From NCBI RefSeq assembly GCF_902459465.1, contig NC_047075.1:14508001-14572000 (forward strand): 64,000 bases of DNA, in the 5' to 3' direction. The notes under the pieces are model-generated. The model was given only the letters and a program-made list of their open reading frames with translations. It ran no database searches and was not told the DNA's origin. Made by a program: the position numbers and the translations under genes. The DNA comes from Asterias rubens (lineage: Eukaryota). Of the stretch, positions 1 through 63,330 are shown one piece after another; the stretch's first letter is position 1, and the number at the start of each line of letters is the position of its first letter.

Positions 1-464
1 CCGTGCAGCCCGCCGTGCAGCCCGCCGTGCAGCCCGCCGTGCAGCCCGCCGTGCAGCCCGCCGTGCAGCCCGCCGTGCAGCCCGCCGTGCAGCCCGCCGT
101 GCAGCCCGCCGTGCAGCCCGCCGTGCAGCCCGCCGTGCAGCCCGCCGTGCAGCCCGCCGTGCAGCCCGCCCCGCCGTGCAGCCCGCCGTGCAGCCCGCCG
201 TGCAGCCCGCCGTGCAGCCCGCCGTGCAGCCCGCCGTGCAGCCCGCCGTGCAGCCCGCCGTGCAGCCCGCCGTGCAGCCCGCCGTGCAGCCCGCCGTGCA
301 GCCCGCCGTGCAGCCCGCCGTGCAGCCCGCCGTGCAGCCCGCCGTGCAGCCCGCCGTGCAGCCCGCCGTGCAGCCCGCCGTGCAGCCCGCCGTGCAGCCC
401 GCCGTGCAGCCCGCCGTGCAGCCCGCCGTGCAGCCCGCCGTGCAGCCCGCCGTGCAGCCTGCCG
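1..464. repeat. GC-rich 12-bp minisatellite (GCAGCCCGCCGT)n, open at the window start
   Basis: Near-perfect 12-bp period; one 5-bp insertion (ccgcc) near 170; last unit GCAGCCTGCCGA. Confidence 0.98.
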
Positions 465-770
465 AACACCAGCAATTGAACTACGTGGACATTGAAGATC
501 CACCACCCAGCGTGAGTTCAAGTTTCAGTGGTATTGACGCAGAGGGATACCTCAATTTGTCAAACTTCAGAAGGCTAGGCCATTCACAATACAGGCCTGA
601 CCTGCGCCTGCACATCAACTACATTTAAACTAGGGTAAGTTCACAGACCATAGATCTTGGGGTGTTTTATCATAGAGGGGAATATCTGTAATTGTTTTGT
701 TGTAAACACCATTGAAACTGAAAGGAAGATTTGAATGTAGAGTTCTCAATGCTGTGGCACTTTTAAGTAT

Positions 771-1703
771 TGTCAGGGTCTACTGGGGTGTAGCCTGGGG
801 TTGATGTGTGTATGTAGCCATTACTCCTCCGTTCAGATGCAGTAACAATTCACTCGGGAAAGAAAATGGAGTCTATACAGTCCAACTGATGGTCGTTAAT
901 TGTCTTATGATATTTTAATCAAACCCAATTAAATCCCCTACAACAAAGGTACAGAGAGACAATACATTTAGTTTGTTTTACAATAATCTAACTCACTTTT
1001 GTTGTAGTTAAAAATAATACTAATATGATCAATTAATAATTCTGGACTTACCAGACACCTGGGATATAGGCAGGTAACCGACCATGTCTATAAGGCGGGT
1101 ATGCCACAATCTGGGCTGTAATAAATACACATACTAATACAGTCACGCATGGTGAATAGATAGCCCTACAGGTGCACAGTGAAACTCATCCACTTACAAA
1201 TAACAGATTTATACAATGAAATGTAAAATAAATATCCACTCACCAGAGTCCACAAACGAAATTGGGTTGGATAACCACTCCCAGATATATTATGTTCTTC
1301 AATTCCACCGCGAAAGCGGTGGAAACTTTTAACGCCGTATTTTGATTGCCTCAAAGTCTCGTATAGTCTTCAAACAATGGCGACCCTTCAATGCAACTTG
1401 CACTGGTCAAACGTATAGGCAACGTTAGCCCTAGTGCAGAAAGAAGTCACTCCGCGCGCAAAAGAAAACTACATTTGTAGACTCATCAGGGAGTTAAAAT
1501 ACCCGATGACGACCTAATTAAATATTAAATGATAACTTGTAAATCCCACGTTACTATTAATGTGAAATTTGAAGACAAACTAATTTTAGAACCAATTTGA
1601 TAAGACGTACTACATTAAGGCAATGTAAGTACCTACAAAGCGAAGCAAAGTGGCTTGCCGCGTTAAAGGCGCTGTGATAAATGAAAGTTGCCAGACCCCG
1701 ACA
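771..1703 (-). repeat. Gypsy 3' LTR, duplicated copy
   Basis: Begins TGTCAGGGTCT and ends AGACCCCGACA (imperfect terminal inverted repeat, TG..CA); near-identical to 5526-6459 and homologous to 9707-10691. Confidence 0.92.
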
Positions 1704-2305
1704 CATTCCCTGTTTAAGAACCGCGCGACCCGAGTGGTTACGTGAAATATATCGAATTAAGATAATCATACATTTTCCCTTGAACATAGTTGAACACCAA
1801 ATGTTACGAAACAATACACATTTATAGTATAAAATATTCTACAGTCGAAGTCGCTTGTCTCTTTAGAGCAACTGCAGCAGGCCAACCTTCGTTAGTTTAA
1901 AGTCTTAAATCTAAATGTACTACACGTACTGCACATGCTAATGAACTTTATACAATGGAAAGCCCGTGATATGAACATACATACAAAACATTACTTAATA
2001 CAAAATATAGTGAACATCACTTTGGAATCAACCGTGGAACTGACACTGTGTCAGAACCCATCGAACATTAATTAAAAATCCTACAGAGGAAGTACCGTTC
2101 AGCTGAATTATCTACCAGCAATATAAACCTAGTTATAGGATATCACAAATCGGTATCACAAATAAATCACTACAAGAAAATATTAAATCAAAAATAGAAT
2201 ACAGACGACTGTTTTTGTAAAAACAAATCTAAATAATCGTTAACTTGTTTATATTTACTTCCCAGGTAAACGATATAAATGAAAAACAAAGTTGAATACA
2301 AGTAA

Positions 2306-2923
2306 CTAATGTAGTCTAAACCGGGCTACCACTTCTCTAATGCCTCTACAATATCTGATCATCCCTTCAACAGTTAGATGACATCCATCTATTAACAACC
2401 ATGGATGGTTAACCCGCCTCTGTGTGTACATTCGCACACTAGGATAGTCACTTCTCAACCGGCGAACTAATTGAGAATTGAATCTACCAGCTCTATTGTT
2501 AAATGTTGAAACAGTAATTTGACCAGCCCTGGTGATTCGTGACCTTCTGATGACTGATAAAACTACTACATGGCGGGGTGGCAATGCTAAGCCAAGTATC
2601 AAATCGAGAAATCGAGTTGTTTGTTGCACCACTGTGTCAGGTGTACCTGACGGATCACACAGATAATTAGTACCCATGTCTATAATTAATATATCAATCG
2701 GTTCGGCGGCAATCTTACGAATATAATGGTCAGTACTATCAAAAATACGCCCAAAGGTCAAACCAGGATGGCCCTCGACAAATACATCACATAGCCAGTC
2801 CGGAGCGAGACCCAATAGCTCTGCCATAGACGAACCAGTCTCCCTAGACCGTCTTAGCAAACGTGCCGGAAATGAATGCCCGTACATAAACACACGAACA
2901 CGATCAGCCATTGTAACTTCCAA
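2306..2923 (-). CDS. SGNH/GDSL-type hydrolase (esterase) ORF inside the LTR retrotransposon, copy 1 (205 aa)
   Basis: Block I YGHSF, block II GHPG, block III GTNYL and block V DGCHL in the correct order and spacing; open frame ATG to stop. Confidence 0.85.
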   Translation of the reverse strand: MEVTMADRVRVFMYGHSFPARLLRRSRETGSSMAELLGLAPDWLCDVFVEGHPGLTFGRIFDSTDHYIRKIAAEPIDILIIDMGTNYLCDPSGTPDTVVQQTTRFLDLILGLALPPRHVVVLSVIRRSRITRAGQITVSTFNNRAGRFNSQLVRRLRSDYPSVRMYTQRRVNHPWLLIDGCHLTVEGMIRYCRGIREVVARFRLH

Positions 2924-3462
2924 TGCCTGCAGTCAACAAAAGTTGACACAATAATAAGAACATTTAGTAACACAACCAATAACAAATTACAAGTTTTAAA
3001 AATGGTCTCTGACCCAATCCGCAACAATAAATAACAATAAAGTAATAAACTTAAAATATACAGGCAATATACATGCAGAGGTGAATCGTTCGACTCAAGT
3101 CAAGTATCACCACATAAAACTGTAGTGACACAAGCTACCCTCATAGTATATTATGTAATATTATAACAAACTGTTTGTTTCCCTTTTCGTCACATATCAA
3201 AATCAAACACAAACGGAGCCTACAAAAATGGTTGGACTATTCTAAGGTATGACTATGTGTATGAGGTGGATCTTGCGACCCAGGTCAGGTATCACCACAC
3301 ACGAGTGTTGTGATACAAGCTACCCTCAATTTAAACACAGGTATAATAGCCAAAACATTGTCAATTTTACAACGCTGCCCTTAAGTAATGGCACTGTGCC
3401 AGCCACCTCGCTTCTTTGCTATCCGCTTGGACCTACGGAGGGAGTGCTGTACTGGAAGACTA

Positions 3463-4670
3463 TCATCTGAACCTTGGGTCAGTTCTAGCCGGCCCACTTG
3501 TTAGCGTCTTAGCGTTTTTGGCTGGTCGTGATGTCTTCTCTGTCTCCTTCTGTGTGATGACCTGTGGGAGGAAGAGGTTTTGTGGAATTAACACAACCTC
3601 GTCATCATCAGACGAAGAAAGAATGTCGGATGAGTCATCCCTACGCGAGGACTCTGTCTCGGACAGGGAGTCAACCTCTGGAAGAAGATCTGGAGGGTCA
3701 CTCACTTCACTAAAATTACACCTGGTATCAAGAGTGAGCAGCGTCCGATTCAGCCATCTTTCAGTACCTCCAGATACAGGCCTTACTGCATACAAATCCT
3801 TATCTACATTACGTTCGACCACCACATAGGACTCAATTTGTGCCTCCCGGTAAAAGCACATTTCTTTACCAATACTCGACTACCCACAACGAATGGTTCG
3901 CCCCTGCACTTCTTGTCATGCCGTAGTTTATTATAGCTAGCAGCTTTTTCAAGGCGATCTCTGACAACCCTGGACATTTGTTCCAACAATCTAGCTTGCT
4001 GTTGTACAAAACCCTCTGAAAATTCCTGACTAGCGTTCCCAATCGGATGATCCAAATTCACAGAAGCTTCCCGCCCGAATAAGAGAGCATAGGGACTAAC
4101 TCCGGTTACACTATGAGGCCTCGAGTTATATACGTACACAAGGTGAGGCAATGCCTCTGGCCATTTCCTTCTATCCCTAGCATCAATTGACTTAACTAGG
4201 AAACATAGCGTCTTGTTGAAACGCTCCGTCTGAGCGTTACCCTGAGGGTGATATGGGCTTGTTCGAGTTTTCTTTATACCGTAAAGTTGGCATATTTCCT
4301 TCACTAGGTTACCCTCAAAGTTCCGACCTTGATCGGAGTGGATCCGCTTAGGGATGCCATAATGAGAAAACCAGTGATCCCTCAGTACCCTCGCTACGAC
4401 CGGTGCGGTCTGATTTTTACATGGGACAGCGGCAGCATATTTTGTGTATGAATCTGTCATAACAAGCACATCTTCCTATCCACCTCGTCCTCGATCTAAT
4501 TTAAGAAAATCAATAGCTAGACATTCCATTGGTGTGAAAGACAGAAGGTGTCTCATTGGTGGCCTGACTACTGGACTTGGAGTCTTTGAAACAGTGCACT
4601 TGAAACAACGGTGCACATAGTCACGTACTCGAGTTGACATCCCTGGCCAAAAACAACGTGAACGTAACAA
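3463..4670 (-). pseudogene. Gypsy integrase remnant, copy 1 (H2C2 zinc-binding end, rve core, GPY/F region)
   Basis: RCFWPGM..VRDYVHRCFKC, LAIDF, IHSDQGRNF, TSPYHPQGNAQTERFN; TAG at 4476-4478 where copy 2 has TAC; frameshift near 3810-3860; truncated by the minisatellite at 4670. Confidence 0.93.
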
Positions 4671-5219
4671 AGCCCGCCGTGCAGCCCGCCGTGCAGCCCG
4701 CCGTGCAGCCCGCCGTGCAGCCCGCCGTGCAGCCCGCCGTGCAGCCCGCCGTGCAGCCCGCCGTGCAGCCCGCCGTGCAGCCCGCCGTGCAGCCCGCCGT
4801 GCAGCCCGCCGTGCAGCCCGCCGTGCAGCCCGCCGTGCAGCCCGCCGTGCAGCCCGCCGTGCAGCCCGCCGTGCAGCCCGCCGTGCAGCCCGCCGTGCAG
4901 CCCGCCGTGCAGCCCGCCGTGCAGCCCGCCGTGCAGCCCGCCGTGCAGCCCGCCGTGCAGCCCGCCGTGCAGCCCGCCGTGCAGCCCGCCGTGCAGCCCG
5001 CCGTGCAGCCCGCCGTGCAGCCCGCCGTGCAGCCCGCCGTGCAGCCCGCCGTGCAGCCCGCCGTGCAGCCCGCCGTGCAGCCCGCCGTGCAGCCCGCCGT
5101 GCAGCCCGCCGTGCAGCCCGCCGTGCAGCCCGCCGTGCAGCCCGCCGTGCAGCCCGCCGTGCAGCCCGCCGTGCAGCCCGCCGTGCAGCCCGCCGTGCAG
5201 CCCGCCGTGCAGCCCGCCG
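4671..5219. repeat. 12-bp minisatellite (GCAGCCCGCCGT), about 46 units
   Basis: Perfect 12-bp period; directly abuts the truncated integrase of copy 1. Confidence 0.98.
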
Positions 5220-5525
5220 AACACCAGCAATTGAACTACGTGGACATTGAAGATCCACCACCCAGCGTGAGTTCAAGTTTCAGTGGTATTGACGCAGAGG
5301 GATACCTCAATTTGTCAAACTTCAGAAGGCTAGGCCATTCACAATACAGGCCTGACCTGCGCCTGCACATCAACTACATTTAAACTAGGGTAAGTTCACA
5401 GACCATAGATCTTGGGGTGTTTTATCATAGAGGGGAATATCTGTAATTGTTTTGTTGTAAACACCATTGAAACTGAAAGGAAGATTTGAATGTAGAGTTC
5501 TCAATGCTGTGGCACTTTTAAGTAT

Positions 5526-6459
5526 TGTCAGGGTCTACTGGGGTGTAGCCTGGGGTTGATGTGTGTATGTAGCCATTACTCCTCCGTTCAGATGCAGTAA
5601 CAATTCACTCGGGAAAGAAAATGGAGTCTATACAGTCCAACTGATGGTCGTTAATTGTCTTATGATATTTTAATCAAACCCAATTAAATCCCCTACAACA
5701 AAGGTACAGAGAGACAATACATTTAGTTTGTTTTACAATAATCTAACTCACTTTTGTTGTAGTTAAAAATAATACTAATATGATCAATTAATAATTCTGG
5801 ACTTACCAGACACCTGGGATATAGGCAGGTAACCGACCATGTCTATAAGGCGTCCCATGCCACAATCTGGGCTGTAATAAATACACATACTAATACAGTC
5901 ACGCATGGTGAATAGATAGCCCTACAGGTGCACAGTGAAACTCATCCACTTACAAATAACAGATTTATACAATGAAATGTAAAATAAATATCCACTCACC
6001 AGAGTCCACAAACGAAATTGGGTTGGATAACCACTCCCAGATATATTATGTTCTTCAATTCCACCGCGAAAGCGGTGGAAACTTTTAACGCCGTATTTTG
6101 ATTGCCTCAAAGTCTCGTATAGTCTTCAAACAATGGCGACCCTTCAATGCAACTTGCACTGGTCAAACCTATAGGCAACGTTAGCCCTAGTGCAGAAAGA
6201 AGTCACTCCGCGCGCAAAAGAAAACTACATTTGTAGACTCATCAGGGAGTTAAAATACCCGATGACGACCTAATTAAATATTAAATGATAACTTGTAAAT
6301 CCCACGTTACTATTAATGTGAAATTTGAAGACAAACTAATTTTAGAACCAATTTGATAAGACGTACTACATTAAGGCAATGTAAGTACCTACAAAGCGAA
6401 GCAAAGTGGCTTGCCGCGTTAAAGGCGCTGTGATAAATGAAAGTTGCCAGACCCCGACA
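5526..6459 (-). repeat. Gypsy 3' LTR (934 bp)
   Basis: TGTCAGGGTCT...AGACCCCGACA; flanked by the TSD on the left and the PPT on the right. Confidence 0.93.
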
Positions 6460-6471
6460 CATTCCCTGTTT
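6460..6471 (-). promoter_or_regulatory. Polypurine tract
   Basis: Minus strand AAACAGGGAATG immediately precedes the TGT of the 3' LTR (also at 1704-1715). Confidence 0.7.
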
Positions 6472-7061
6472 AAGAACCGCGCGACCCGAGTGGTTACGTG
6501 AAATATATCGAATTAAGATAATCATACATTTTCCCTTGAACATAGTTGAACACCAAATGTTACAAAACAATACACATTTATAGTATAAAATATTCTACAG
6601 TCGAAGTTGCTTGTCTCTTTAGAGCAACTGCAGCAGGCCAACCTTCGTTAGTTTAAAGTCTTAAATCTAAATGTACTACACGTACTGCACATGCTAATGA
6701 ACTTTATACAATGGAAAGCCCGTGATATGAACATACATACAAAACATTACTTAATACAAAATATAGTGAACATCACTTTGGAATCAACCGTGGAACTGAC
6801 ACTGTGTCAGAACCCATCGAACATTAATTAAAAATCCTACAGAGGAAGTACCGTTCAGCTGAATTATCTACCAGCAATATAAACCTAGTTATAGGATATC
6901 ACAAATCGGTATCACAAATAAATCACTACAAGAAAATATTAAATCAAAAATAGAATACAGACGACTGTTTTTGTAAAAACAAATCTAAATAATCGTTAAC
7001 TTGTTTATATTTACTTCCCAGGTAAACGATATAAATGAAAAACAAAGTTGAATACAAGTAA

Positions 7062-7679
7062 CTAATGTAGTCTAAACCGGGCTACCACTTCTCTAATGCC
7101 TCTACAATATCTGATCATCCCTTCAACAGTTAGATGACATCCATCTATTAACAACCATGGATGGTTAACCCGCCTCTGTGTGTACATTCGCACACTAGGA
7201 TAGTCACTTCTCAACCGGCGAACTAATTGAGAATTGAATCTACCAGCTCTATTGTTAAATGTTGAAACAGTAATTTGACCAGCCCTGGTGATTCGTGACC
7301 TTCTGATGACTGATAAAACTACTACATGGCGGGGTGGCAATGCTAAGCCAAGTATCAAATCGAGAAATCGAGTTGTTTGTTGCACCACTGTGTCAGGTGT
7401 ACCTGACGGATCCCACAGATAATTAGTACCCATGTCTATAATTAATATATCAATCGGTTCGGCGGCAATCTTACGAATATAATGGTCAGTACTATCAAAA
7501 ATACGCCCAAAGGTCAAACCAGGATGGCCCTCGACAAATACATCACATAGCCAGTCCGGAGCGAGACCCAATAGCTCTGCCATAGACGAACCAGTCTCCC
7601 TAGACCGTCTTAGCAAACGTGCCGGAAATGAATGCCCGTACATAAACACACGAACACGATCAGCCATTGTAACTTCCAA
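7062..7679 (-). CDS. SGNH/GDSL-type hydrolase ORF, copy 2 (205 aa)
   Basis: Same motifs as 2306-2923; differs by a single C-to-W substitution next to GTNYL. Confidence 0.85.
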   Translation of the reverse strand: MEVTMADRVRVFMYGHSFPARLLRRSRETGSSMAELLGLAPDWLCDVFVEGHPGLTFGRIFDSTDHYIRKIAAEPIDILIIDMGTNYLWDPSGTPDTVVQQTTRFLDLILGLALPPRHVVVLSVIRRSRITRAGQITVSTFNNRAGRFNSQLVRRLRSDYPSVRMYTQRRVNHPWLLIDGCHLTVEGMIRYCRGIREVVARFRLH

Positions 7680-8218
7680 TGCCTGCAGTCAACAAAAGTT
7701 GACACAATAATAAGAACATGTAGTAACACAACCAATAACAAATTACAAGTTTTAAAAATGGTCTCTGACCCAATCCGCAACAATAAATAACAATAAAGTA
7801 ATAAACTTAAAATATACAGGCAATATACATGCAGAGGTGAATCGTTCGACTCAAGTCAAGTATCACCACATAAAACTGTAGTGACACAAGCTACCCTCAT
7901 AGTATATTATGTAATATTATAACAAACTGTTTGTTTCCCTTTTCGTCACATATCAAAATCAAACACAAACGGAGCCTACAAAAATGGTTGGACTATTCTA
8001 AGGTATGACTATGTGTATGAGGTGGATCTTGCGACCCAGGTCAGGTATCACCACACACGAGTGTTGTGATACAAGCTACCCTCAATTTAAACACAGGTAT
8101 AATAGCCAAAACATTGTCAATTTTACAACGCTGCCCTTAAGTAATGGCACTGTGCCAGCCACCTCGCTTCTTTGCTATCCGCTTGGACCTACGGAGGGAG
8201 TGCTGTACTGGAAGACTA

Positions 8219-9252
8219 TCATCTGAACCTAGGGTCAGTTCTAGCCGGCCCACTTGTTAGCGTCTTAGCGTTTTTGGCTGGTCGTGATGTCTTCTCTGTC
8301 TCCTTCTGTGTGATGACCTGTGGGAGGAAGAGGTTTTGTGGAATTAACACAACCTCGTCATCATCAGACGAAGAAAGAATGTCGGATGAGTCATCCCTAC
8401 GCGAGGACTCTGTCTCGGACAGGGAGTCAACCTCTGGAAGAAGATCTGGAGGGTCACTCACTTCACTAAAATTACACCTGGTATCAAGAGTGAGCAGCGT
8501 CCGATTCAGCCATCTTTCAGTACCTCCAGATACAGGCCTTACTGCATACAAATCCTTATCTACATTACGTTCGACCACCACATAGGACTCAATTTGTGCC
8601 TCCCGGTAAAAGCACATTTCTTTACCAATACTCGACTACCCACAACGAATGGTTCGCCCCTGCACTTCTTGTCATGCCGTAGTTTATTATAGCTAGCAGC
8701 TTTTTCAAGGCGATCTCTGACAACCCTGGACATTTGTTCCAACAATCTAGCTTGCTGTTGTACAAAACCCTTTGAAAATTCCTGACTAGCGTTCCCAATC
8801 AGATGATCCAAATTCACAGAAGCTTCCCGCCCGAATAAGAGAGCATAGGGACTAACTCCGGTTACACTATGAGGCCTCGAGTTATATACGTACACAAGGT
8901 GAGGCAATGCCTCTGGCCATTTCCTTCTATCCCTAGCATCAATTGACTTAACTAGGAAACATAGCGTCTTGTTGAACCGCTCCGTCTGAGCGTTACCCTG
9001 AGGGTGATATGGGCTTGTTCGAGTTTTCTTTATACCGTAAAGTTGGCATATTTCCTTCACTAGGTTACCCTCAAAGTTCCGACCTTGATCGGAGTGGATC
9101 CGCTTAGGGATGCCATAATGAGAAAACCAGTGATCCCTCAGTACCCTCGCTACGACCGGTGCGGTCTGATTTTTACATGGGACAGCGGCAGCATATTTTG
9201 TGTATGAATCTGTCATAACAAGCACATCTTCGTATCCACCTCGTCCTCGATC
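8219..9252 (-). pseudogene. Gypsy integrase remnant, copy 2 (5' part deleted)
   Basis: GRGGYEDVLVMTDSYTKY, IHSDQGRNF, HPQGNAQTERFN; homology with copy 1 stops after TCGATC at 9252, where the element's leader sequence takes over. Confidence 0.92.
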
Positions 9253-9684
9253 GTGCGAATTTAAACCCCATTGCACTACCCAATTAGACCAACTAGTAGC
9301 TTAAAAGTACATAAACAGAAATGCAAGTTTCACAAAAATATAATCAAACTACACCAAAGAACTACTACACACACGTCTCCTTTAAAGCAATAACAACCCT
9401 TGTCGAAAGCCTAACCCATGCATAGCTATAGACCACATGTGCCCAAAGTCGCAGTCAAAACAATAACATCCACTATAAATTGGTGAAATAGAAACGGTCA
9501 CCCGACATGTTACAACATAGAAAAAGGTCGTACTTTGGCACAATTAAATATACCGTGACAAAATCAAATGTGGGGTGCCAATATTCAGTGAATATCCCGT
9601 AAATATACAAATTAAAGAAAGTTGTTGTGGTGCTGGGGATTAATTAAATTTAACAATCATCAGTAGAATGAATTGATTCCTGGA

Positions 9685-9703
9685 AATCCTGTCTACGACG
9701 CCA
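9685..9703 (-). promoter_or_regulatory. Primer-binding site, tRNA-Ser-like
   Basis: Minus strand TGGCGTCGTAGACAGGATT starts 3 nt after the 5' LTR; it is complementary to a tRNA 3' end AAUCCUGUCUACGACGCCA with a G discriminator, typical of tRNA-Ser. Confidence 0.75.
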
Positions 9704-9706
9704 AGC

Positions 9707-10691
9707 TGTCAGGGTCTACTGGGGTGTAGCCTGGGGTTGATGTGTGTATGTAGCCACAACACCGGGGTGAGGATTACTCCTCCGTTTAGATGCAGTAACA
9801 ATTCACTCGGGAAAGAAAATGGAGTCTATACAGTCCAACTGATGGTCGTTGATTGTCTTATGATATTTTAATCAAACCCAATTAAATCCCCTACAACAAA
9901 GGTACAGAGAGACAATTTATTTAGTTTGTTTTACAATAGTCTAACTCACTTTTGTTGTAGTTAAAAATAATACTAATATGATCAATTAATAATTCTGGAC
10001 TTACCAGACACCTGGGATATAGGCACTAGCTCTCCTAACCGACCATGTCTATAAGGCGTCCCACGCCACAATCTGGGCTGTAATAAATACACATACTAAT
10101 ACAGTCACGCATGGTGAATAGATAGCCCTACAGGTGCACAGTGAAACTCATCCACTTACAAATAATGAGAAATGTTTATAGCCACAAATAACAGTTTTAT
10201 ACAATGAAATGTAAAATAAATATCCACTCACCAGAGTCCACAAACGAAATTGGGTTGGATAACCACTCCCAGATATATTATGTTCTTCAATTCCACCGCG
10301 AAAGCGGTGGAAACTTTTAACGCCGTATTTTGATTGCCTCAAAGTCTCGTATAGTCTTCAAACACTGGCGACCCTTCAATGCAACTTGCACTGGTAAAAC
10401 GTATAGGCAACGTTAGCCCTAGTGCAGAAAGAAATCACTCCGCGCGCAAAAGAAAACTACATTTGTAGACTCATCAGGGAGTTAAAATACCCAATGACGA
10501 CCTAATTAAATATTAAATGATAACTTGTAAATCCCACGTTACTATTAATGTGAAATTTGAAGACAAACTAATTTTAGAACCAATTTTATAAGACGTACTA
10601 CATTAAGGCAATGTAAGTACCTACAAAGCGAAGCAAAGTGGCTTGCCGCGTTAAAGGCGCTGTGATAAATGAAAGTTGCCAGACCCCGACA
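9707..10691 (-). repeat. Gypsy 5' LTR (985 bp)
   Basis: Homologous to 5526-6459 with several small insertions; same termini; followed by the TSD GTAT. Confidence 0.93.
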
Positions 10692-10819
10692 GTATATTTT
10701 AACAAGATATTGATACAAAAATATTGAAAATGAAAAATAAAAATTCCCATTAAAAATTACACGCCCTAGTTTTGAAATCCATAAGCAGTGACAGTTCAAG
10801 TGTAGGCCAACGTGTAGAT

Positions 10820-11017
10820 ATTAGACTCTGCAAAAGAAAACAAATAAAGAAAGTTTACAAATTAGCAACCTAAACCCCCAAAACGGAGAAGATAAGAAGT
10901 GTTGTAGAGAGGATAAGAAGTGTTGTAAGCTACAACACTTCCTATCTTCTCCTTTTGGGGGGTTTAGGTTGCTAATGTGTAAACTTTCTTTATTTGTTTT
11001 CTTTTGCAGAATCTAAT
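10820..11017. mobile_element. About 200-bp palindromic (foldback/MITE-like) element
   Basis: ATTAGACTCTGCAAAAGAAAACAAATAAAGAAAGTTTACA... at the left is the near-perfect reverse complement of ...TGTAAACTTTCTTTATTTGTTTTCTTTTGCAGAATCTAAT at the right; arms about 80 bp. Confidence 0.8.
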
Positions 11018-12527
11018 TCATGGATAGTCTCTACAGCAAATTGTTTTGGCTGTTTATATGTTTAATGAGGTAAGTATTAGTCTTTTGTGTTCCTTACCCA
11101 CTGCTTTGGTCTAAATTGTTGTGCCTATTAACAAACAATTACAGTTGCATCTTTCCACATCTTATAACATAAGTATTTTTGTTGTCTGGACTATTTACTC
11201 CGGTCACATTTGCAGTGTATGTTCATCCTCTATGGTGTCACTGTGCATTGTTTCAACTTTAAAATCACAATATCATGTCTTTATTATCTTTCCAAGATTT
11301 TCGCATAAAGGTAGAAAAGTATAATTGGAGTGATGCTCACAATTTATAAACTAGTCATTACTGTGACAAATCTAGCCAATTTGTTCCTTAATGACCTTCG
11401 TTGGGAAGATCGCTGCCAATGGAAAGAGCTTCAAGTGTGGATTCTTTGATGAAGATACTTTGTAAGTACACTTACTTTCAGTACGTGTAATATATTAATA
11501 GGATTTAACAGGCCACTATTTGTCAACAATGTTCGATGCAGTATGTGTGACATGCAGTCTGTGTGATTTTGTGTCAAACAACATGGTCCGAGACATGATC
11601 TAACAGTTGATTTTTATTGTATGTACTAATGGTGCTCTTCAAAGATATTTATCAACAATTTAGTGAGGTTTGTGGTAACACAATGTACACTTGTTGCGCA
11701 TGTTGTTACTATATGAATTTTGTCAATCATCCTTGCCACCCATTACTTTGGAAATATGGGATGCTACAAAAACCAGCCTTATCAATCTATTTGTAATCTT
11801 GATTGAAGACATATTTCTATGTTTTGATCATATATTTTACATTTAAACTGCATCAAGAGTAATAGTAATGAATACATATTCATGAATAGTATACAAATAA
11901 TGAATGTTTATGAGAGCAATGGTAAGAATATTTTCATGAGTTGAAAGATGAAATGTGCATTCAACGAGGCGAATGGAAATATTCTTACTATTGCACGAAT
12001 GAAAAACATTCCCAAGCAGATCCTTGTTATTTGGTTGGAGTATAACACTATAAATAAAATGTACAACTTGGAGGGCGTGCGAGCATGCAATAGAACAAAT
12101 CGGATGGAACGATAAATGCACGGTGAATGACGTAGCGTGCAATGGTACGTTTATTTGCTATCACGTGACCGACAATCCTCCAATCAAATGACGAGGATCT
12201 GCTTGTGTGTTATATAAAATCAACTAATCTATTATGGGTGAAAATCAGATTGTGGACATTTTTGGAGAATCTGTGCAGACTGAATTTGCTCTCTACTCTC
12301 TTGTTAATTCTATATATTCATAATTTCACTTATAAATCTTTGTGCATATTTAATTATTGTTTTTCATGCTTTGTTGGTTTTCATTTACTTCTGATAGTGT
12401 TTGTGTTCATCAGTTTTACAATATTTCTACCTTTCCTCATGTTACATGACTTTTGCTTTTTTTCTGATCATTGTATATGTATTTCCACCTTGTTCATTCA
12501 TCCAAACTCAATACAACAGGAGGAAGA

Positions 12528-12625
12528 GCTGCCATGTTTGTGAGAAACTTGCACAAATTTCTTATCCGTGAGGACCTTATGGCATCCTGCGACGACTTTG
12601 AATGCGTTTTTATTGAGATTGAGGC
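12528..12625 (+). pseudogene. Small LINE apurinic-endonuclease fragment
   Basis: Translates to GGRAAMFVRNLHKFLIREDLMASCDDFECVFIEI, resembling the GGVxxY...RxDL...ExxxIEI segment of CR1/L2 endonucleases. Confidence 0.45.
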
Positions 12626-12894
12626 CATGCTAGTAATCTAATTGTCGGTAGTTTTGTGTTAGTGTGTCCAAGGCATCTCGTCACAAGCCTAGGCTTCATG
12701 AAGATGCCTCTATACCAATGGGTTTTTTCTGCCTTTTATATCGTTTTGTTACTCTCATTTACAATTCCCATGTGTTCTCTGGTATTGAAATAAATGTGAA
12801 TTTGAATGGAATTGAATTGAATTCCCTTCTCTCCTATTTTTATAAATTCCAGAATTTCTCAAGAAGAAATGCCCTGAACAACTGGAAAAATACA

Positions 12895-13400
12895 TTGCAG
12901 ATGTGAGCAAAGCAAAGTTACACAGACAAGCCAACTCATTTTCATCAGAAGCAACTGCTCCTGACAATGAGCAGATATCAAGCAAAGATGATGCAAGCCC
13001 CGCTCTTGCAGGACCAAACCAAGCTGATGTCAGCGACAACGTTGATGACGATGGAAGTGGTAGTGAAACGTACCTAGTGACCTTGCAGATGTGAGCAAAG
13101 CAAAGTTACACTGACAAGCCAACTCATCTCCATCAGAAGCAACTGCACCTGACAATAAGCAGATATCAAGCAAAGATGATGCAAGCCCCGCTCTTGCAGG
13201 ACCAAACCAAGCTGATGTCGGAGACAACTTTGATGATGATGCAGATTGCTACATCTTGCCTAGTTACCTTGCAGATGTGAACATAGAAAAACTACTTGAA
13301 CAAGCCAACTCATCTCAATCAGAACCAAATGCAGAAAAGGAGCAAATATCATCCAAAGATAATGCAAGCTGCTCTCTTGATGATGAAGACAACTTTGAAG
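12895..13400. repeat. Three diverged 186-188-bp tandem repeats upstream of the recombinase ORF
   Basis: TTGCAGATGTGA recurs at 12895, 13083 and 13269, each followed by CAAGCCAACTCAT and AAAGATGATGCAAGC-like blocks. Confidence 0.85.
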
Positions 13401-13534
13401 GTGATACAGATAGTACTTATAGCATGCCCAGTGAAGAGGATGTTTCAACCAGTTTGTCAGAGTCTTCTGAATATGAAGTACCAGCAAAAAAAGGAAACAA
13501 CCATTGAAAGTACAAAGATCAACCTCAGAATCCA

Positions 13535-16500
13535 TTGTGCCTGACAGCTGTGATGAACCAGCAAAAGCAAAAGAAGCGGAAGAGATGTCTTGATGTGATT
13601 CGAGCAAAAGGAGATCATATCCATAATATGAGTGTTGTTAAGCATCACAAGGGAGAGTTGATCCTTGCAAGAAGACCAACAGATGTGCTTGATATAAGCA
13701 ACTATGGCCCCTGCCCCAGCTGTAAAGAATGGCTACGGCTGACAATAATAAAGCGACATCAATCTTCCTGTCCGGGACAAGAGGAGGAAACTCATGCAAG
13801 TACAACGTCTAAAGGGTGTCTGCTGCTTCAGTCTAATGTCCTCGCAGGAAGGGTAAATGATCGGGCAAGCAAAGCTTTGAGAGATGAAGTCTTCTCTATC
13901 ACGAAGGATGATGAAATAGTTCAAATAGCCCAGTGCGATGCTTTAATCATTGCCCTTGGTAATGACTGGATGATTAAAAATGTTGGCAACAGATTAATGC
14001 GCAAGTATTATACATCCAGTAAAATGAGATTGGCTGCTCGAATAAAAATTCAGCTCAACCGCCTAGCAACTCCACAGTCTGGGACTGAATTGCAAAACTA
14101 TCTCCATCCGCAATACTTTGAGGAAGTGACCAAAGCTGTCATGTTGGTTGCTAAGCAAGATGCAGGTGATGAAGAGGATCTTCAGTCGCCCTCTAATGCT
14201 ATAAAGCTATCTCATGATCTAAAGAAATTGGCAAGTATAAAACTGGCCAAAGCTATCTGTACAGGAGATGACATAAAAAGGAGAGAATCAAAAGATTTTC
14301 TTAAAGTAATCACGATCAATTTCTCCACAAAGCTTGCACGAGTTTTGCTTAGTGAGAGACAGTTTGGAGTGCGTAAACCATTGCCACTACCAAGATATAT
14401 AAAGAAACTGGCAGACTAAATTAGTGGAGAGTTGCAGTCCCTGGATCTGAAGGACTGCTCATACAGCAACTTCACAACAGCAGTGAAATTGGTCGAAACA
14501 AAATTGATTACATATAATCGGCGTCGGTGCGGAGAGCTTCAGGCAATGCTGTAAGTAAAAAAAAATGCATTATGTTTTACTTGTCAGTGTAGTGAAGTCC
14601 AGATCCAGAGTGACTCCTATACAATGAATGCAAAGTACTTTTAAAAGTTATCTTGAGTCCAACCTCAGTTCAACATTGTACAAATGTGCTTATGTTTGCA
14701 CTGCACTTGAGCCTGACACCAAATATTAGACGTCAAGCCAGATTCAAATTGAATGTAACCATGAACTTTGAATGTGGACTCGAGTACATGTACATTGTAC
14801 AAAATGTGTATGTTTTAATCACAAAAGCAAGCACAAGCAAGCTTCTGCGTAAATTTGTACAAGTTTTTTGTTTTACAGCAAGACATATACTGTACTGTTG
14901 GAGTATGTTGGATGAGTGACTAAGTAAATAATTCAAATAAATGTATAAGAATTTCTATCATAACGCAACAATTACCAAACAGATTGGGACATTTTATCAG
15001 TATACATTTTACATGTACAGTTAAACATTAAAAAGTTTGCTCCTTCCCAGAAATATTGTAAAATGCAGTCATCCATTGTTCTACATAGTAGATGACATTT
15101 CTATTTTCAAAATAATGGACCAGCTTTTGGAGTGACTTTGTAACTTCAGATAATTTATAGAAGTTTTTTTCTAAAATAATAATTGCAGCTTAAGCAGCTA
15201 CTCCCAACGCAAGAAAGGAATCAGTGAGGTTGAGGCAGAGGTGATGCAACTGACCACCTTTGAACAGAAACTTGCAGAGTCACAGCAGCTCGTCGAAATC
15301 CGTGGAAAGGTAGTTATTTGTTATCTTGAATCCTCGATTCTGATAGGTTGATCCATGGCAACAACAGTGTGATAATAACTTATATTGCACGGTCTATATT
15401 GCTCGAGCGTATTGTTTTGTTAGCTGTTCTAACTGCGCGTATTGCGCTTTTAAAGATAAATTATTCACTGTACATTAAAAAGTGGCGCGTTTGTATCCCA
15501 TCACGCTGATCGTAACCAGTGTTTTTGAAGCAAACTCGTTACATTTAACATAAAAATTATCACTATACTGCAAAACACATGGGAGGCAGAATATTTGGAG
15601 TTTCCAGATATGTTGAATTCGGGATTGATAATGTTTACTTAAAAATGTTAAAAATGTTCAATTCTTGTTAACATTGTACTGTCTTTTATTGATGCAAAGG
15701 AAAATTTAATAATTCTAGCGCTTCGTAGTAAATAAAGTCATGCGTCTTTCACCTTCACTGGGTGTCAAGTTTGCTTAAAGATAAATTTGTTATCACACGC
15801 GCACTCGTGTAATACAAAAAAATATAGCACGTCTGCATCACATATTAAACTCGGACTGGGACGCAGAATCGCTATATTTTTCTGTATAACAATCGCGCTA
15901 GTGATAACTAATAATAGGATATTATATTTCCATAGATATCCCACTATTGCATACAGCAGAATCAGCAATGAATCAAATGATTTATTTTCAACAGACTGGG
16001 CGAGCTGTACCAGTGATACTACCTGCTGAAGTGCAGCCAGTAATGGAGTATCTGACAAGCAGCGAAGTCAGGAGAATTGCAGGAATCATGCCTGTAAACT
16101 CCTATGTTTTTGCAAGCAAAGGTATGAACAAGTTTGACAACAGTTCCTCTTTAATACCCAAATTCAAAAATGAATTCAGAAGACTAAAAGCATTTAAAAA
16201 TATACATGTAACTTCATGTTCTTGGAAAGATAAATAACAATACCACGCTCTCGATCAGGATTGTGTGTGCATATGTTTTGGTAAATAGCAGACTCTTATT
16301 AATGAGATATTGGGACCAGCGCAATTAAATAAATGATGTTGTAATAATAGTAGTGGGAAAGAAAGAGCAACAAAATGTTTACACTGAAATTTGTGCTTTG
16401 ATATGAAGCAAAGTACATAAAGTACAGAATCTGTATTTTATTACACGCCAGGTGCTGGAGTGGTCCGGGGGTACAATGCAGTCGACAGTGTGGCATCCTC

Positions 16501-32406: not shown

Positions 32407-35400
32407 CTAAGCGCTTCTGTGATTGAAGAGATGGGTTTTAAGTTGTGATTTAAATTGTTCTAGTGTGGCACAGTCTTTGAGATTGTTGGGAAGAGAGTTC
32501 CATAGTTTAGGTGAAGCATATTGGAAGGAACGTTGACCGTAGAACTTCGTGTGAACTGGAGCTGCTATGAGAAGACCTTTTGAACTGGAACGAAGTGTTC
32601 GCGGAGGGTGGTAGTGCTGAATTAAATCCTGGAGATAGTCTGGTGCTGATCCGTTTTTGCATTTGTAGGTGAGTGTTAGGAGTTTGAAAACTATCCGTGA
32701 TTTAACTGGTAGCCAGTGGAGATTGCGAAGGATCGGAGTGATGGGTTCAAGTGATCGGGTTCTAGTGATGAGTCTGGCTGCAGAATTTTGAACGCGTTGG
32801 AGTTTATGAAGTTGACATTCTGGTAATCCGTATAAGAGGCTGTTATTATTGTCAATGCGACTCATCACAAATGCATGAATCAATTTTTCCGTTATCGATT
32901 GGTCAAGATATTGTCTGATTTTTCCGATTTTGTGCAAACCAAAAGAAGATGCTCGGCACAAATTACTGACATGCTTTGCCATGGTGAGTTGATCATCGAT
33001 GATGACACCCAGGTCCCGTGCATGTGAAGTTGGCTCAAGAGATGAATCTGCTATGGTGATAGGTTGGAGTGAACTCTTGCTTCTGAATTTGGATGAAAGA
33101 CGGAGAAACTCAGTTTTTTGTTGATTTAACTTTAAGCCATTTCTTGAAGACCACACTTTGATGTCATTTAAGCAAGCTTCAAGTTTTGGTATGATAGTCG
33201 ACTGAGTGTTGTGATTGAGAATGGTGTAAACCTGGGTGTCATCAGCGTACATGGTGTATGACATTCCATGGGACTTGATCACATCTTCCAGGGGTGAGGA
33301 ATAGAGCGTGAATATGGAAGGACCCATTACGGAGCCTTGAGGGACTCCGCGTCGAGGGAACTGGTTTGATGATATCTGATCTCCAATGACTACTGACTGA
33401 CTGCGATTGGTGAAATAAGATTGAAGCCACTTGAGAGCATTGTTGTGAAATCCGAATCTCTGCTCTAGCCGATCAAAAAGAATGTTGTGATTAATAGTGT
33501 CAAATGCTGCTGTGTAGTCTAATAACAGTAAGACTGCTTCCTGACCACTATCCAATGCAAGCAGTAGGTCATTGATGACACGAAGCAGGGCAGTTTCACA
33601 ACTATGATTTTTTCGATACGCTGATTGCATAGTTGCATTTAGGTTGTTTGTTGACAGGTAGTTCTGCATTTGAGAAACTGCCGCACGCTCAACAGTTTTT
33701 GATAAGAACTTCAAGTTGGAGACTGGTCTATAATTCTTGAGATCTTCAGGATCCATCTGAGGTTTCTTTATCAGTGGCTTGATGGTGCACATTTTAAGAT
33801 GTCTGGAAAATGTGCCAAAGCGAAAGACCTGTTGACAATACAACAAATAACTGGTGCAAGTTCATTAGCACATTTTTTGAGAAGACCAGTTGGAATTGGG
33901 TCAAGACTGCTGGTAGATGTCGGAGAATTGGCTATGAGTCGAATGATTTGCAGTGTAGAAACGGGTTCAAATGTCTGAAAGTCGGATTCACATATCTGAA
34001 ATTGAATATGTGAAACATCAGTAGTCGGCTTTTCTTGAATCTCCATAGCTATGCGTTCAATTTTCTCACTAAAGTAATGAGCAAAGCGTTCTGTTAGTGG
34101 TACTTGTGAGGTGTCGGTAGATGGGAGAGTTTTTGCTGGTGATGTTTTGCACAACTTATCCACCTTGTGAAAGAGCTCATGCATACTGCAGTTCTCCAGT
34201 TGAGCAGAGTGGTAGCCGTTTTTAGCCTTATGAATCATTTGATTGTATTGACGACACTTAGCTCTAAATATCTGTCGATCAATCTCAAGTTTCGAGGCTC
34301 GCCATCTACGCTCTAAACATCTCAGTTCCGATTTGAGTTTGTGTAGACTGTCATTATACCAAGGTGCATTTGGGCGACACGTAATTGTTCTAGTGATCAA
34401 GGGGGCGTGTTTGTCGAGGAGATTGCTCAGAACTGACTCATACTGTTCAACTAACTGGTTGAGATCTGTTGATGGAGCTGTGTATAATTCAGAATCAAGA
34501 ATGTCCTGTTGAAATGTATCGATGTCAATTTCACCAACTTTCCGTGTTTTTATGACTACTTTAGTAGGGTCGGGTTTGCGAATGGCAAGCAAACACATGA
34601 TGGCGGCATGGTCTGATGGTAGGATCTGCGTGGTGGAAACATCCGAAACCGAGTGATCAGAAGAACGTGTGAGCAATAAGTCCAGCGTGTGTCCTTGTTG
34701 ATGTGTCGGAACTCTAACATGTTGTTCCAAGCTAAATGAATCAATGAGCTCCAAAAACAACAATGCCTCACGATTAGATTCATTGTCCACATGGAAGTTG
34801 AAATCGCCCACGATCATTAACCGATTCGGCTCTGACACCAGTAGCTCTAAAAGTGTTGAAAAGTCACTCATGAAAGTAGGAAATGTTGGCTGCTTGCTCT
34901 TAGTCAGCTGTGGTCTGTAGACTACTACTAGACGCAAGGGATTTGTCTGATGCGCAGTTATAAACAGGTCCATGTATTCAAATGAGTCCCATGATCTGCA
35001 TTTATTCTCACACACCCGAAAAGTTTTGCGGATGCAAACACCCACACCCCCTCCAGTTCTGCTTCTTCGTGGAATATGGTGAAATGTATGTGTTGGTAAA
35101 GTGTTCAGGAGATCTGCGATTGGAACACTATCACGATCATCACCATACAGCCACGTTTCAGTCAGAGCAAATATGTCTATTTGATTCGAGATAATAAGAT
35201 CGCATATCATCGGGATCTTGGAATTAATTGATCTGGAATTCCACAGAGCAAACTTAGAGTTTAGTGCCCGGACATCATGTCCTTCTTGATCAGAGACATG
35301 AGTATTATTATTATGCTTACATCTCCTTCTGCCACCCTTGCATCCTCTACGTGTTTTTCCTTTCCGATTTATCCCAAGTGAGGTGATAGTGGTCCAAACA

Positions 35401-35762
35401 GTGTTTTCTAAGCGCTGATTGAAGTGTTGAAACTGATAAAGTTGTGATCTATTGTATGATATGCGGCCATCATGTTGGTCAGATATATCTGGAGCACAGT
35501 TAGAAATGGTATGATCTCTGTTTTCAGCAGCAGTAGGTCCTGGGTTAGATTGAATATCCCCTGCCGTTAGTAGTAACTGCACTTGAAATGTGCACAGTGC
35601 ATTGCTGTAGTAAAGCACTTTACCACCCTGGTACTTTACAGGCAGAAGCCGATGGCTTGTCACAATGGATTTCAACAATTGCACTGACAATACATTGTGC
35701 TGTGGTCCAGTGTTGAATAGAAGACAAGCCAGGATGAGTAGAACTTTATGAATAGCTCCCAT
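32407..35762 (-). pseudogene. LINE ORF2 (APE endonuclease plus reverse transcriptase) with one frameshift near 33780
   Basis: LWNSRS, ALTETW, GDFNFH, GHTLDL, SDH; YRPVSNL, QSAYR, LLDYTAAFDTI, GVPQGSVMGP, YADD, LHWLPV. Confidence 0.93.
35535..35570 (-). other. 2A-like (StopGo) peptide motif LLTAGDIQSNPGP
   Basis: Codons 69-76 of the ORF read DIQSNPGP, preceded by LLL; the consensus is D(V/I)ExNPGP. Confidence 0.7.
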
Positions 35763-38700
35763 TGTGATTGGTGATTGTCCATCAAGCTGATTGTTCCATA
35801 TGGTTGAGCGAACATCAAGCTTGCTGTGTACAAATGGTGGCTTCAGCAGTCACTCCAGCTTGAACAAATTCAATTTTGAAAAGTCTCAAAATACGATCAA
35901 ACGTTGATGATTCTTCAGCCAATAAAACACCCACTGGAATCTACATCAACTTAACTGTCCACTGGTGCAAGAACAAAAGTCAAATTGTACATGAAAGTGC
36001 CTCCAAAATCGAAAACTTCAAGAGGGGATCTGAGCGGCTGGTTAGGCGCTCTGATTTATTAAGATTTTGTGTTTACCTTGTGAAATCAACCAATCATAGT
36101 ACACAAGACTGATCACGTGATCTATCCAACGAAATGTAATTGGTTCCTACCGCTTGCATGATGATGATATTCATGAAACGTGAAAACTGCATGCACAAAC
36201 TTCTCGGCGAACAAAACAAAACGGAACACGTAAATAACTTTGATTTGACCCACCGTCGTGTTTCAAAATATGTAAAATGTGGTCTCTTTCTTTGGAAGAT
36301 ATGTTGAGGATCTTGCCGATGTGTCGAGCATATCGATCGTTTAAACTCATGTTAGATGTCACTGAAAAAACGATCAAAATTCCTCTATGATTACCCAGCT
36401 CATGACCCATGTTATGCAACAGTCTTAATGCAAGGCGGTCGTGGCCCGGCCGGGAGACCTAGACTTTCGCTACGATTTGGAACATGACATGAACATTTAT
36501 TACTGCTGATTTCGTGTAATTTAATTTACCCTCAAACCAGGACAATGCATGAATTTATTACAGTATCGTATGTAAAGATGGGTGAAAGAAATAACAATGG
36601 ATCTTACATTGTGCATGTATGCAAGACGAGTCCAAAAAGATTTCAGTGACAAGTCACGATGATTTGGATTTAGCGCACGGTCAACACAGTACAATTTACA
36701 TGTACTGTGTGATTACATGTGATTTCCATGGTCGTGCAGAGCCGGTCGGCCGTGGGGAAAGCGCTCTGACCCGGTCTGTGTGCACGTGTGACACGGGTGC
36801 GGTGTGTTTATTCCCCGGTCGGAGGGGCAACTTTGGAGTCGATTAAAACATGGAAAAATGGCATTTATCGACAATGTTAAACCGTATTTAGTGACTTAAT
36901 ATTTCCATTTTTGATATGACGTGTGCGCGATCGGGGATTATTTGAAATTTCTGCATGATCTACGAACAAACATTTTTGGTAGGCTATAAAATTCCCCCCT
37001 GCATATTCCATCAAAAAGATGACGTCTTCCTCTGTAAGATGGTACCTGATTGGTTGATTTTGGACGGAGTTTTCCATGTCAAAATGGAATTTCGATGTCG
37101 CTTGTGCGAAAACCGATGGGGACAACATTCAGGCTGGCAACCCGTTGTGTGTTGCGGTACCATATTCAACCCGCCGTAACAAAGTTATTTGAAGTCCTTA
37201 CGAAATGAAACTTACACACATGACAAAAGGTATATAAATGTTTTATTTGTACAAGTTTCAGCCATGTATGACACCAAATACGAAAATTACAGTACTTTGA
37301 AAACAGCCCATGACCCCGCAAATCAGTGTTGTCTAGGCCGTATGTGGGCTACGTTCGGCGGGCCTATTAATACTTTAGTTAAGAGATTATCCAGATTTAT
37401 TAGAGTTTGACTGGCCCTAATCTTAGATTCGGTGTTGCTGTCTCCGAATTAAAATCGAGCGTTAGAATAATTGTTGATATAGTACTTCGAGAGTTTTAAC
37501 TTGCAAAAATCATTACACTTCTGTTAGAATCGATCTATACTTGAAGCTCCTTCAAGTTTTGTATATTTTTGCCTGTTGGGGACTATTTGATTTAAACTCG
37601 TTCTGCTTTTTTACTATTTAGCATTTTTCTATTGTTGTCTGTTTCATTTTATCAACTATTGATCAAAGGTACCGACTCAAATGCTATATACTTGGCACAC
37701 CGTATCACAATTCTCCTTTGTCTGTGCGTTGCGTGTTTGGCTCGGTGGTCGCCGTGCTGGCTTGGTCGGCTTATTTGTTTTGTCCACGGGGAGCACGCCA
37801 CCATCCAATCAGCAATGCCGTAGTGTAGGTAGTGATTGGTTATACATGTTAGATGTGTCAGCTAATGAGGATGTAATTATTACAATTTTGAGGGAGTTTC
37901 GCTTGCTTAGAGTCACTTTGTTCCTTTTGTAAATTGCTAATGAAAAAATGCTAAATCGTTAATAGAAAAAAAAAATGTTTATTTACACGAAACAGGTCAG
38001 CCTCATTCTTTCCGTTTGTCATCTACTTTCCACTTAGATAAAGGGGATAGTTGAGCAAGCATTTTGCGGTCATTTTCGTAGTGATACGAGCAGACGGACG
38101 GCGGGCTCTATCGATGATTTCATCAGGCGGGACTAGACTGTCATTGTCGACTGATGGAGAGGAGATATAGGTGCCGTCTTTTATTTAGTGGATCTTCATC
38201 GTGTTTGCCAAAACAAAATTCAGTTGAATACAAATGTGACATCCGTCAAACCGTTACCTTTTGTTTTCGCTGTCACGTAATTCTCATATCTATTACTTGC
38301 ACTTGTTGGTTTCTCTGTACATTTCTGTTTTTTTTATATAGAAATTGTGATACTTGAAGTGTGGGCCTTTGACAATACTGTTTACCGAAATGGTCCAATG
38401 GCTTTAAGTCCTAATAGAATAGACCTGCAGAATGGTAAAAAAGCTACCATACTTAAAGAGCTACATGCATATAGAAAACTTCCGGACATTTGCTCACGGA
38501 AGCCACTGCACGCGTGGTTTAACACGTGAAACACATGGCCAAAAACGGCCCTTCACGTGAACTTCCCCCTGCTAGCAAAAAGTGTTATGTATCAAACCAG
38601 ATCGCTCAGTATTTGAAAGTATATAACATCTTCTTTCGGTACGATATATTTTCTTAATTCATGCAACTCGAGAACATAGGGCCTTTTTTGATTAAAAACT

Positions 38701-62500: not shown

Positions 62501-63330
62501 TCTAACATAAATCGCTACTCCACCCCCACTTCTTTCAGTTCTAATCTTGGTAAATATCTGGAAACCGTCCACTGCTAGGTAGTCATCAGTGATCATGTTT
62601 GACTGCCAGGTTTCTGTAAGAACAGCAATGTCATTGTGGGAGGAATATGGCTGCTTGAGGATAGCTTCAAGTTCATCAACTTTATTCATGGCTGAACGAA
62701 TGTTTGTAAGGAAAAAACCTGGGAGGGAGCTCAGCTTTGGGCAATTCGTGCTAGTAGTTCCAGCAGGTTTTTGTTTGTGGCACTGCGGCACTGAGAGCAC
62801 TGAGGGTAGACGTGGGTACGAGGTTGGTTTGGCAGATCGAGGTCTCACAATTACCTCAATTCTCCTTTGTAGAAGTTTCCCAGCACGACAACCACGTTTA
62901 GTTCTTTTGCAACATTTTTGGATCTCTAGACATTTGCTCAGTATGTCTTGGTTGGAAGAAACCCCAATTTTATTGTTAATGTTGAGGCTTTTGAGGTAGC
63001 TAGAGCTATACGTTAATCTCTCCATTAGGCAGTTACTGTAGTGCTGGGGACCAGACTAGATAAAGTCATGTTTCTTAACTGTAGGATGTCTGGTATCCAG
63101 TGGTCACGTAGCATTGGTTCAAAACGATTGATGTGCAACAAAGAAAGTAGCTGCAATATCACTTTCCGGTCTCAATCCATATGCACAGAACGGGTACAGT
63201 ATGACAAAGGTACTTACAAAACGCCACAGTTCACACTTGGAGTGGACAAACATGTTACAGACGGAGAAATGTTATAAAAACAGCGGAGATTAACAGAGCT
63301 AAAAAGATACCAGTGCAGCCATTGACAAGG
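59563..63330 (-). mobile_element. Near-full-length CR1-like LINE
   Basis: (TGAA)n tail at 59563-59590, long 3' UTR, APE-RT ORF and a GC-richer 5' end near 63330 (approximate). Confidence 0.85.
60055..63025 (-). pseudogene. CR1-like ORF2 with one nonsense codon (61229-61231) and a frameshift near 60835
   Basis: KRGCRAG, LTNIRS, LTETW, GGGVAIY, GDLN, SDH; LRPISLT, DFSKAFD, GVPQGTKLGP, KYVDD, LKLNPSKC, KLLGL, YVRPSVEYASPVW. Confidence 0.93.

Follow-up and report, generated by a model that had tools for sequence, protein, structure and literature searches.

What role could a small folded RNA repeat play between the pol gene and an additional reading frame of an LTR retrotransposon? The question is raised by a stretch of 64,000 nucleotides of Asterias rubens DNA (hereafter the window; C15, positions 14508001–14572000, of a 418-Mb genome). 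A sequence-only reading had proposed that two covarying three-way-junction motifs lie here, just upstream of an SGNH-type frame, with an IRES-like, processing, exoribonuclease-resistance or packaging role.

A duplicated 67-nt sequence behind pol

An LTR retrotransposon with internal deletions occupies the minus strand of the window at bases 771–10691, together with a second copy of its own 3′ part. The element reads, along that strand, 5′ LTR (10691–9707), primer-binding site (9685–9703, with 19 of 19 nt common to a second family, N), leader, integrase from 9252, a third frame (ORF3), and 3′ LTR (6459–5526). The duplicate (4673–771) lies behind a 12-bp minisatellite and contains the end of pol (3463–4673; an integrase frame that is broken here, with an rve match of E = 5.6e-12 on its counterpart in the other copy), a hairpin and polypurine tract also present in N (1706–1739), and a 3′ LTR (771–1703). 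The minisatellite is G + C-rich and occurs at 1–460 and 4676–5218, the junctions of the 4756-bp duplication.

This family, A, has four copies, two of them beyond the window on C12 and C15. The latter two have gag- followed by pol-like frames and 985-bp LTRs that are 98.8% alike. Its LTRs, primer site, polypurine tract, gag, and a pol whose last domain is integrase identify the host element as a Ty3/Gypsy-type LTR retrotransposon, an assignment for which the order protease, reverse transcriptase, RNase H, and integrase was read by eye from translations rather than placed on a tree. The pol of the C15 copy carries a 1011-bp insertion (L123:4875-5885), a high-copy repeat that is very deep in RNA runs and over which contigs from each of the four sets jump.

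Past the pol stop (3465–3463), the minus strand carries two 67-nt units. Unit 1 (3262–3328) lies 134 nt downstream of the stop and scores 99.5 bits with R1, a model built from unit 1 itself, while unit 2 (3077–3143) begins 185 nt further downstream, i.e. ~320 nt from the stop. The units share 54 of 67 bases (82%) and differ at 13. Their likeness begins and ends at the closing stem of the predicted fold, as the 60-nt flanks on either side resemble each other no more than chance would have it (306/500 and 162/500 shuffles score as high). The repetition described earlier is confirmed, with four copies in register (3078–3143, 3263–3328, 7834–7899, and 8019–8084); the other two are minus-strand duplicates at 8018–8084 (unit 1) and 7833–7899 (unit 2). 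All four sites are thus present, but the second pair adds nothing as independent evidence, being letter-identical to the first within a segmental duplication in which 1,158 of the 1,160 nt around the motif are the same. The 67-nt repeat is real, conserved sequence inside an LTR retrotransposon.

A predicted three-way junction

The lowest-energy fold of the isolated units on the minus strand is a three-way junction of the shape that had been drawn from the letters. Unit 1 comprises a 5-bp closing stem, the 7-nt junction GUAGCUU, an 11–12-bp stem-loop (the long stem), a 6-nt junction, and a 6-bp capped stem, whose loop is GCAA in unit 1 and GAAC in unit 2. Minus-strand folds are better than those of shuffled sequences (z = −2.4 to −4.5; 0–3 of 200 shuffles as good), whereas on the plus strand this holds much less (z = −1.9 and −0.1) and for unit 2 not at all.

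Differences between the units largely spare the stems. Only 2 of 22 pairs are broken, both at helix ends, compared with a mean of 5.5 when 13 changes are placed at random (P = 0.024), and the same differences read on the plus strand break 4 pairs. In the capped stem a G-C pair becomes A-U, with both sides altered, and in the long stem an A-U pair becomes G-U. The label "covarying" is nonetheless too strong a word, since 49 of 500 shuffles of a six-sequence alignment reach the observed count. In that alignment 2 of 23 pairs are altered on both sides, one of the sites is unpaired in 3 of the 6 rows, and one two-sided change is clean. All evidence for the motif comes from a single genome, in which three of its variants are independent (the two units and the motif of N).

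The closing stem is invariant in sequence among all variants, and with covariation this thin, the case for the three-way junction is made by sharp boundaries and invariance. In sequence context, predicted pairing probabilities are 0.85–1.0 for the long stem and 0.3–0.96 for the capped stem, while those for the closing stem are ~0.35 in the family A element and 0.01 in a family N copy. As predicted structures, the long and capped stems are well supported. The junctions are near-invariant, as had been claimed, except that the second varies in its first and last letters among variants and the first is altered in 1 of 4 element copies.

Tandem three-way junctions past a stop codon recall flavivirus xrRNAs, described as compact and often arranged in this manner (PMC8374639), and the junction might by analogy stall Xrn1 and leave a stable 3′ fragment. 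According to the same source, flavivirus xrRNAs need at least one pseudoknot, although some xrRNA folds are presented without known pseudoknots (PMC8374639). By contrast, no pseudoknot partner that both units share with N is found in the loops, the junctions, or the 15 nt upstream and 20 nt downstream; the longest candidate pairings in each variant span 2–4 bp and have different partners. Nor does any Rfam family, xrRNA or other, reach or approach its gathering score in the search that had been suggested, as the Rfam 15 scan gives no match to the units within bases 1–14000, and a further scan gives only mir-144 (13.4 bits vs 60 for gathering, E = 2.9). As set out below, upstream AUGs precede the SGNH start, and the motif also occurs where there is no SGNH gene. 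We thus regard exoribonuclease resistance as quite unlikely. Loop kissing or a palindromic dimer loop was considered separately and rejected, because the loop letters differ among variants.

The hammerhead core has the consensus CUGANGA plus GAAA, and its absence, noted earlier by eye, holds for all three variants on both strands. Rfam returns no other ribozyme either, and a cut at the motif would sever the genomic RNA, which reverse transcription needs intact. A new self-cleaving ribozyme is hence very improbable, despite a conserved unpaired core around the junction, loops that are free to vary, and the frequency of ribozymes reported in retroelements (PMC6765202).

Inheritance of the motif and expression of the SGNH frame

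All 12 candidates from a genome DNA search with unit 1 match the motif, 8 in the four family A copies and 4 in the non-autonomous family N, which was found through this search with the motif region itself. N elements are ~4.6 kb long, with 613-bp LTRs, one 221-aa frame and no pol; the motif is present in 4 of 4 copies found and an SGNH match in none of them. When N and A elements are compared over their lengths, three pieces are shared and no others: the primer site (19 nt), a cassette of 138 nt, and the 52 nt that lead up to the 3′ LTR. Of these, the first and the last, which includes the polypurine tract, are textbook cis signals. The cassette surrounds unit 1 (window 3216–3361, minus strand; 82% over 150 columns, with 62 of 68 in the motif; E = 5e-33), and the same N motif also matches unit 2, more weakly. 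A contig from run X5, a different sample, fits the motif alone and continues into N-type flanks, which means that the cassette of N is found beyond the present assembly.

Comparison of the N copies reveals variation in 2 of 68 columns of the motif, each of them a loop position, vs 82 of 908 columns overall (P = 0.048). Within the cassette, varying columns number 6 of 68 in the motif and 21 of 82 in the flanks (P = 0.01), but counted by events the numbers are 6 and 11 (P = 0.30), with no clear difference.

The counter-case is a sister family, N2, found via a primer-site search (20 matches, 12 regions examined). N2 is 70–85% alike to N and aligns with it on both sides of the cassette, with other sequence between, and its copies are 95–98% alike, as are those of N. 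Both N2 copies that span the site lack the cassette, in a third the N2-type sequence covers the site in part, and two more have deletions there; the motif is thus not needed by every relative. All N2 copies found are truncated or rearranged, none being whole, and one contains the remnant of a different SGNH gene (72% to P0005 over 47 aa), which suggests that N2 may have used another helper element. Likeness to A sets in where likeness between N and N2 breaks off, and it gives out where the latter returns; at these two borders the alignments overlap by 8 and 4 nt, as would be left by a double template switch. Either N would have acquired the cassette through a template switch between RNAs packaged together, or N2 would have lost it.

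In both N and N2 (L027:6524-7189 on the plus strand; L110 reverse 1452-2066), a frame of ~200 aa is kept open and ends in a hydrophobic C-terminal stretch. It has no clear likeness to gag; for N, resemblance to three proteins is short and weak (E = 0.005–0.1), and we do not claim a gag remnant.

The motif could be a passenger, i.e. a fold with little or no present function, with unit 2 and the N cassette as leftovers of duplication and recombination. Weak covariation and a closing stem that is weak in context would suit such an origin, as would the absence from N2 and the event counts, by which the motif is not clearly better kept than its flanks. Against it, units 1 and 2 are alike over 67 nt only, between flanks that are random, and the changes between them spare the stems, a combination that makes a mere passenger unlikely.

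The frame downstream of the units, ORF3 (2306–2911, minus strand; second copy 7062–7667), encodes an SGNH/GDSL-like protein. Its own match to the GDSL family PF13472 in Pfam is weak and below cut-off (E = 0.026), while 9 of 9 relatives match that family (best E = 5.6e-8). Other animal genomes encode related proteins with 76% and 46–52% identity. Between the pol stop and this gene, the units lie ahead of a predicted 3′ splice site, CAG/G (2927–2929, minus strand), located 15 nt before the SGNH AUG. Several features are consistent with an acceptor: branch-point-like TACTAAAT lies 35 nt upstream (2969–2962), the site closes the longest AG-free stretch (78 nt) among the 94 AGs from the pol stop to the 3′ LTR, and no AUG intervenes between the site (2929–2926) and the SGNH start at 2911. 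Donor-like sequences are predicted in the 5′ LTR (G/GTAAGT at 10004 and G/GTGAGT at 10231), and splicing has been described as typical of the ORF3s that LTR elements carry (PMC5408684). We therefore predict, from these letters, that the SGNH message is made by splicing from a 5′ LTR donor to the acceptor at 2927. The pyrimidine content of the acceptor is just 63%, and among 6 related ORF3s a like site precedes 4 and fails in 2. Coverage in four raw RNA runs falls nearly all on an unrelated insertion and the LTR (motif depth ≤0.23) with no read that shows splicing or expression, and four contig sets of unrecorded kind list no joint to the predicted acceptor; neither source supports an inference either way.

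If the predicted splice is real, the motif is found only in full-length RNA and is absent from the SGNH message. This bears on the earlier suggestion that the motif serves SGNH translation, as an IRES-like or processing signal, which we do not uphold. All four N copies keep the motif without an SGNH gene, so it is not tied to SGNH translation. Moreover, two AUGs (3074 and 2963) stand between unit 2 and the SGNH start, one of them overlapping the start out of frame. An IRES would fit the location of the motif upstream of SGNH in the element, yet with these AUGs, the predicted acceptor, retention without the gene, and the splicing described for ORF3s (PMC5408684), it is an extremely improbable explanation.

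The units might instead act as a brake on splicing, damping the acceptor 150 nt downstream and thereby setting the ratio of genomic to SGNH RNA, in the manner of the avian retrovirus NRS (PMC9143442). Their place within the predicted intron, near the acceptor, would allow for this. However, the motif is kept in N, where there is no SGNH gene to splice to, and contains no donor-like sequence, so that we give such a brake only a small chance.

Shielding of transcripts whose 3′ UTR is long against nonsense-mediated decay, as by the stability element of Rous sarcoma virus (RSV), is another candidate role. The RSV element is long and pyrimidine-rich; the compact, G + C-rich fold of the motif, and a second copy that sits 320 nt from the stop, fit less well. 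This leaves a shield against decay with a slim chance, even though unit 1 lies 134 nt past the pol stop in A, the motif of N lies ~205 nt past the stop of its sole long frame, and the RSV element offers a precedent (PMC10309623).

A candidate signal on unspliced genomic RNA

The motif is kept alongside two classical cis signals, does not depend on SGNH, and falls inside the predicted intron, all of which points to a signal carried by genomic RNA that stays unspliced. Specifically, we propose that the motif is a protein-docking signal on this RNA, for export and packaging, and give this reading a probability of about one half, by analogy with retroviral elements. The 67-nt units, folded as predicted, would dock a protein, with the stems holding two near-invariant junction strands for it, and the docked protein would route the genomic RNA out of the nucleus and into particles. 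SGNH would be expressed from spliced RNA (LTR donor to 2927), which removes the motif and leaves full-length RNA as its sole carrier. The earlier claim that pol and the extra frame are separated by a conserved RNA element is supported, and its packaging-type option comes near the explanation we prefer.

The proposal draws on four findings: the units follow the pol stop, they are duplicated between flanks that are unrelated, their differences spare the structure, and the motif is present in a family without pol or SGNH. Several observations count against it: the cassette is absent from N2, the acceptor fails in 2 of 6 relatives and has 63% pyrimidines, the corresponding structure of a second SGNH-Gypsy family (below) occurs in no non-autonomous copy, and the packaging sequence mapped in Ty1 is described at the 5′ end (PMC4974528).

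Like retroviral export and packaging elements, the motif lies in non-coding sequence in the 3′ part of unspliced RNA, a likeness of position and inheritance pattern only. In RSV, two direct repeats act in export and packaging of unspliced RNA (PMC9143442). These also are two non-coding copies by an accessory gene in the 3′ part, with a function that is known there and proposed here; as described, they flank src and are hairpins, whereas both units here precede ORF3, are 67 nt long, and branched (PMC9143442). MusD has a transport element near its 3′ LTR (PMC4588558), and the MER11 transport element was gained by recombination (PMC11379458). The MusD MTE, MPMV CTE, and MER11 are, like the motif, structured cis elements in the 3′ half whose sequences are unrelated between families, but they range from 162 to about 1000 nt, are all from vertebrates, and in the case of MTE need kissing loops and a pseudoknot (PMC4588558; PMC11379458). 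The worm element Cer1, an invertebrate case, is described as producing an accessory message by splicing and as needing, at the same time, to get its unspliced RNA exported (PMC10309623). Vesta LTR retrotransposons also have a GDSL/SGNH ORF3, described as typically spliced, and the main text of their description presents no RNA structure before ORF3 (no IRES, subgenomic RNA, UTR, or ribozyme; PMC5408684).

The article texts searched yielded no description of the motif. Elements of this kind are known from retroviruses; neither a small, branched version within a Gypsy element that bears SGNH nor the passage of such a piece into a non-autonomous family appears to have been described. To our knowledge, there are few invertebrate elements for which the export of unspliced RNA is understood. 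The packaging sequences of LTR retrotransposons, those of Ty1 and Ty3 included, are described as lacking a precise definition (PMC4974528). The motif, naturally duplicated and transferred, is small enough for direct probing and reporters, and would represent a new fold in a retrotransposon if it proved to be an xrRNA or ribozyme instead. Its reach so far is narrow, with one element family and one derivative.

We find 21 SGNH matches in the genome. In a second SGNH-Gypsy family, a different and longer stem-rich sequence follows the pol stop by 30–40 nt (L113:6225-6345 on the plus strand; L114 reverse 6049-6180 and 6391-6520, the sequence being doubled in one copy). Its outer stem has paired changes among three sequences, Rfam returns two chance matches only, and 13 of 13 genome matches are pol-SGNH elements. 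A third family, represented by one copy, has yet another predicted fold at the same place. In predicted structure, then, the post-pol place is common to SGNH-Gypsy families, and the structure is not. Because related families carry unrelated structures at this place, we slightly favor the element's own Gag, acting in packaging, over a host export factor as the docked protein. A broader generalization is a new class of compact three-way-junction RNA, a family-specific Gag label after pol that is absent from the esterase message and was stolen by a non-autonomous family via recombination, with one label for each SGNH-Gypsy family; we offer this tentatively and consider it rather doubtful.

Pattern and model searches for more members score candidates only, so member counts are lower bounds. 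Over 10 loci of related elements (93 kb), R1 gives at best 13.7 bits, vs 84–100 for true units. A junction pattern has 56 matches in the same genome and 63 in a reversed control; 12 of the 56 are known units, 5 others picked by eye do not score with R1 at the pattern site, and the remaining 39 were judged by eye. An earlier pattern had 16 matches there, including 7 known units. Viral contigs gave one pattern match, which does not fold, and no relatives in SGNH and integrase searches. Prokaryote genomes gave no SGNH relatives; their 27 pattern matches, of which the best scores 16.9 bits, are attributed to chance. Metagenome contigs gave one distant SGNH (26%), near which neither LTR context nor motif was seen.

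Other repeats were seen in the course of these searches. A Gypsy-type element with the same primer site (L104 reverse 5701-6777) has an ORF3 that opens with zinc-finger-like repeats behind an acceptor-like site. Short non-autonomous derivatives of the L109 element, also with this primer site, occur in L102, L103, and L105 (first 2.8 kb), with 498-bp LTRs that are 99.8–100% alike in two of them. The window itself contains an inverted repeat with 88-nt arms, 94% complementary (10820–11017), which has sub-threshold microRNA matches only, and three elements of LINE type whose frames encode an endonuclease and a reverse transcriptase (32407–35849, 43348–45800, and 60055–63055).

A short inverted repeat with a G-rich center also lies 10–20 nt ahead of the polypurine tract (window 1719–1739, minus strand). 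Such repeats are found in nine Gypsy-type elements (window 1719–1739, L027:9050-9090, L104, L109, L111, L113, L115, L117, and L118), with stem letters that differ and a hairpin predicted in ~6 of the 9; such a hairpin might have a general signaling role in plus-strand priming or in the pairing of RNA ends.
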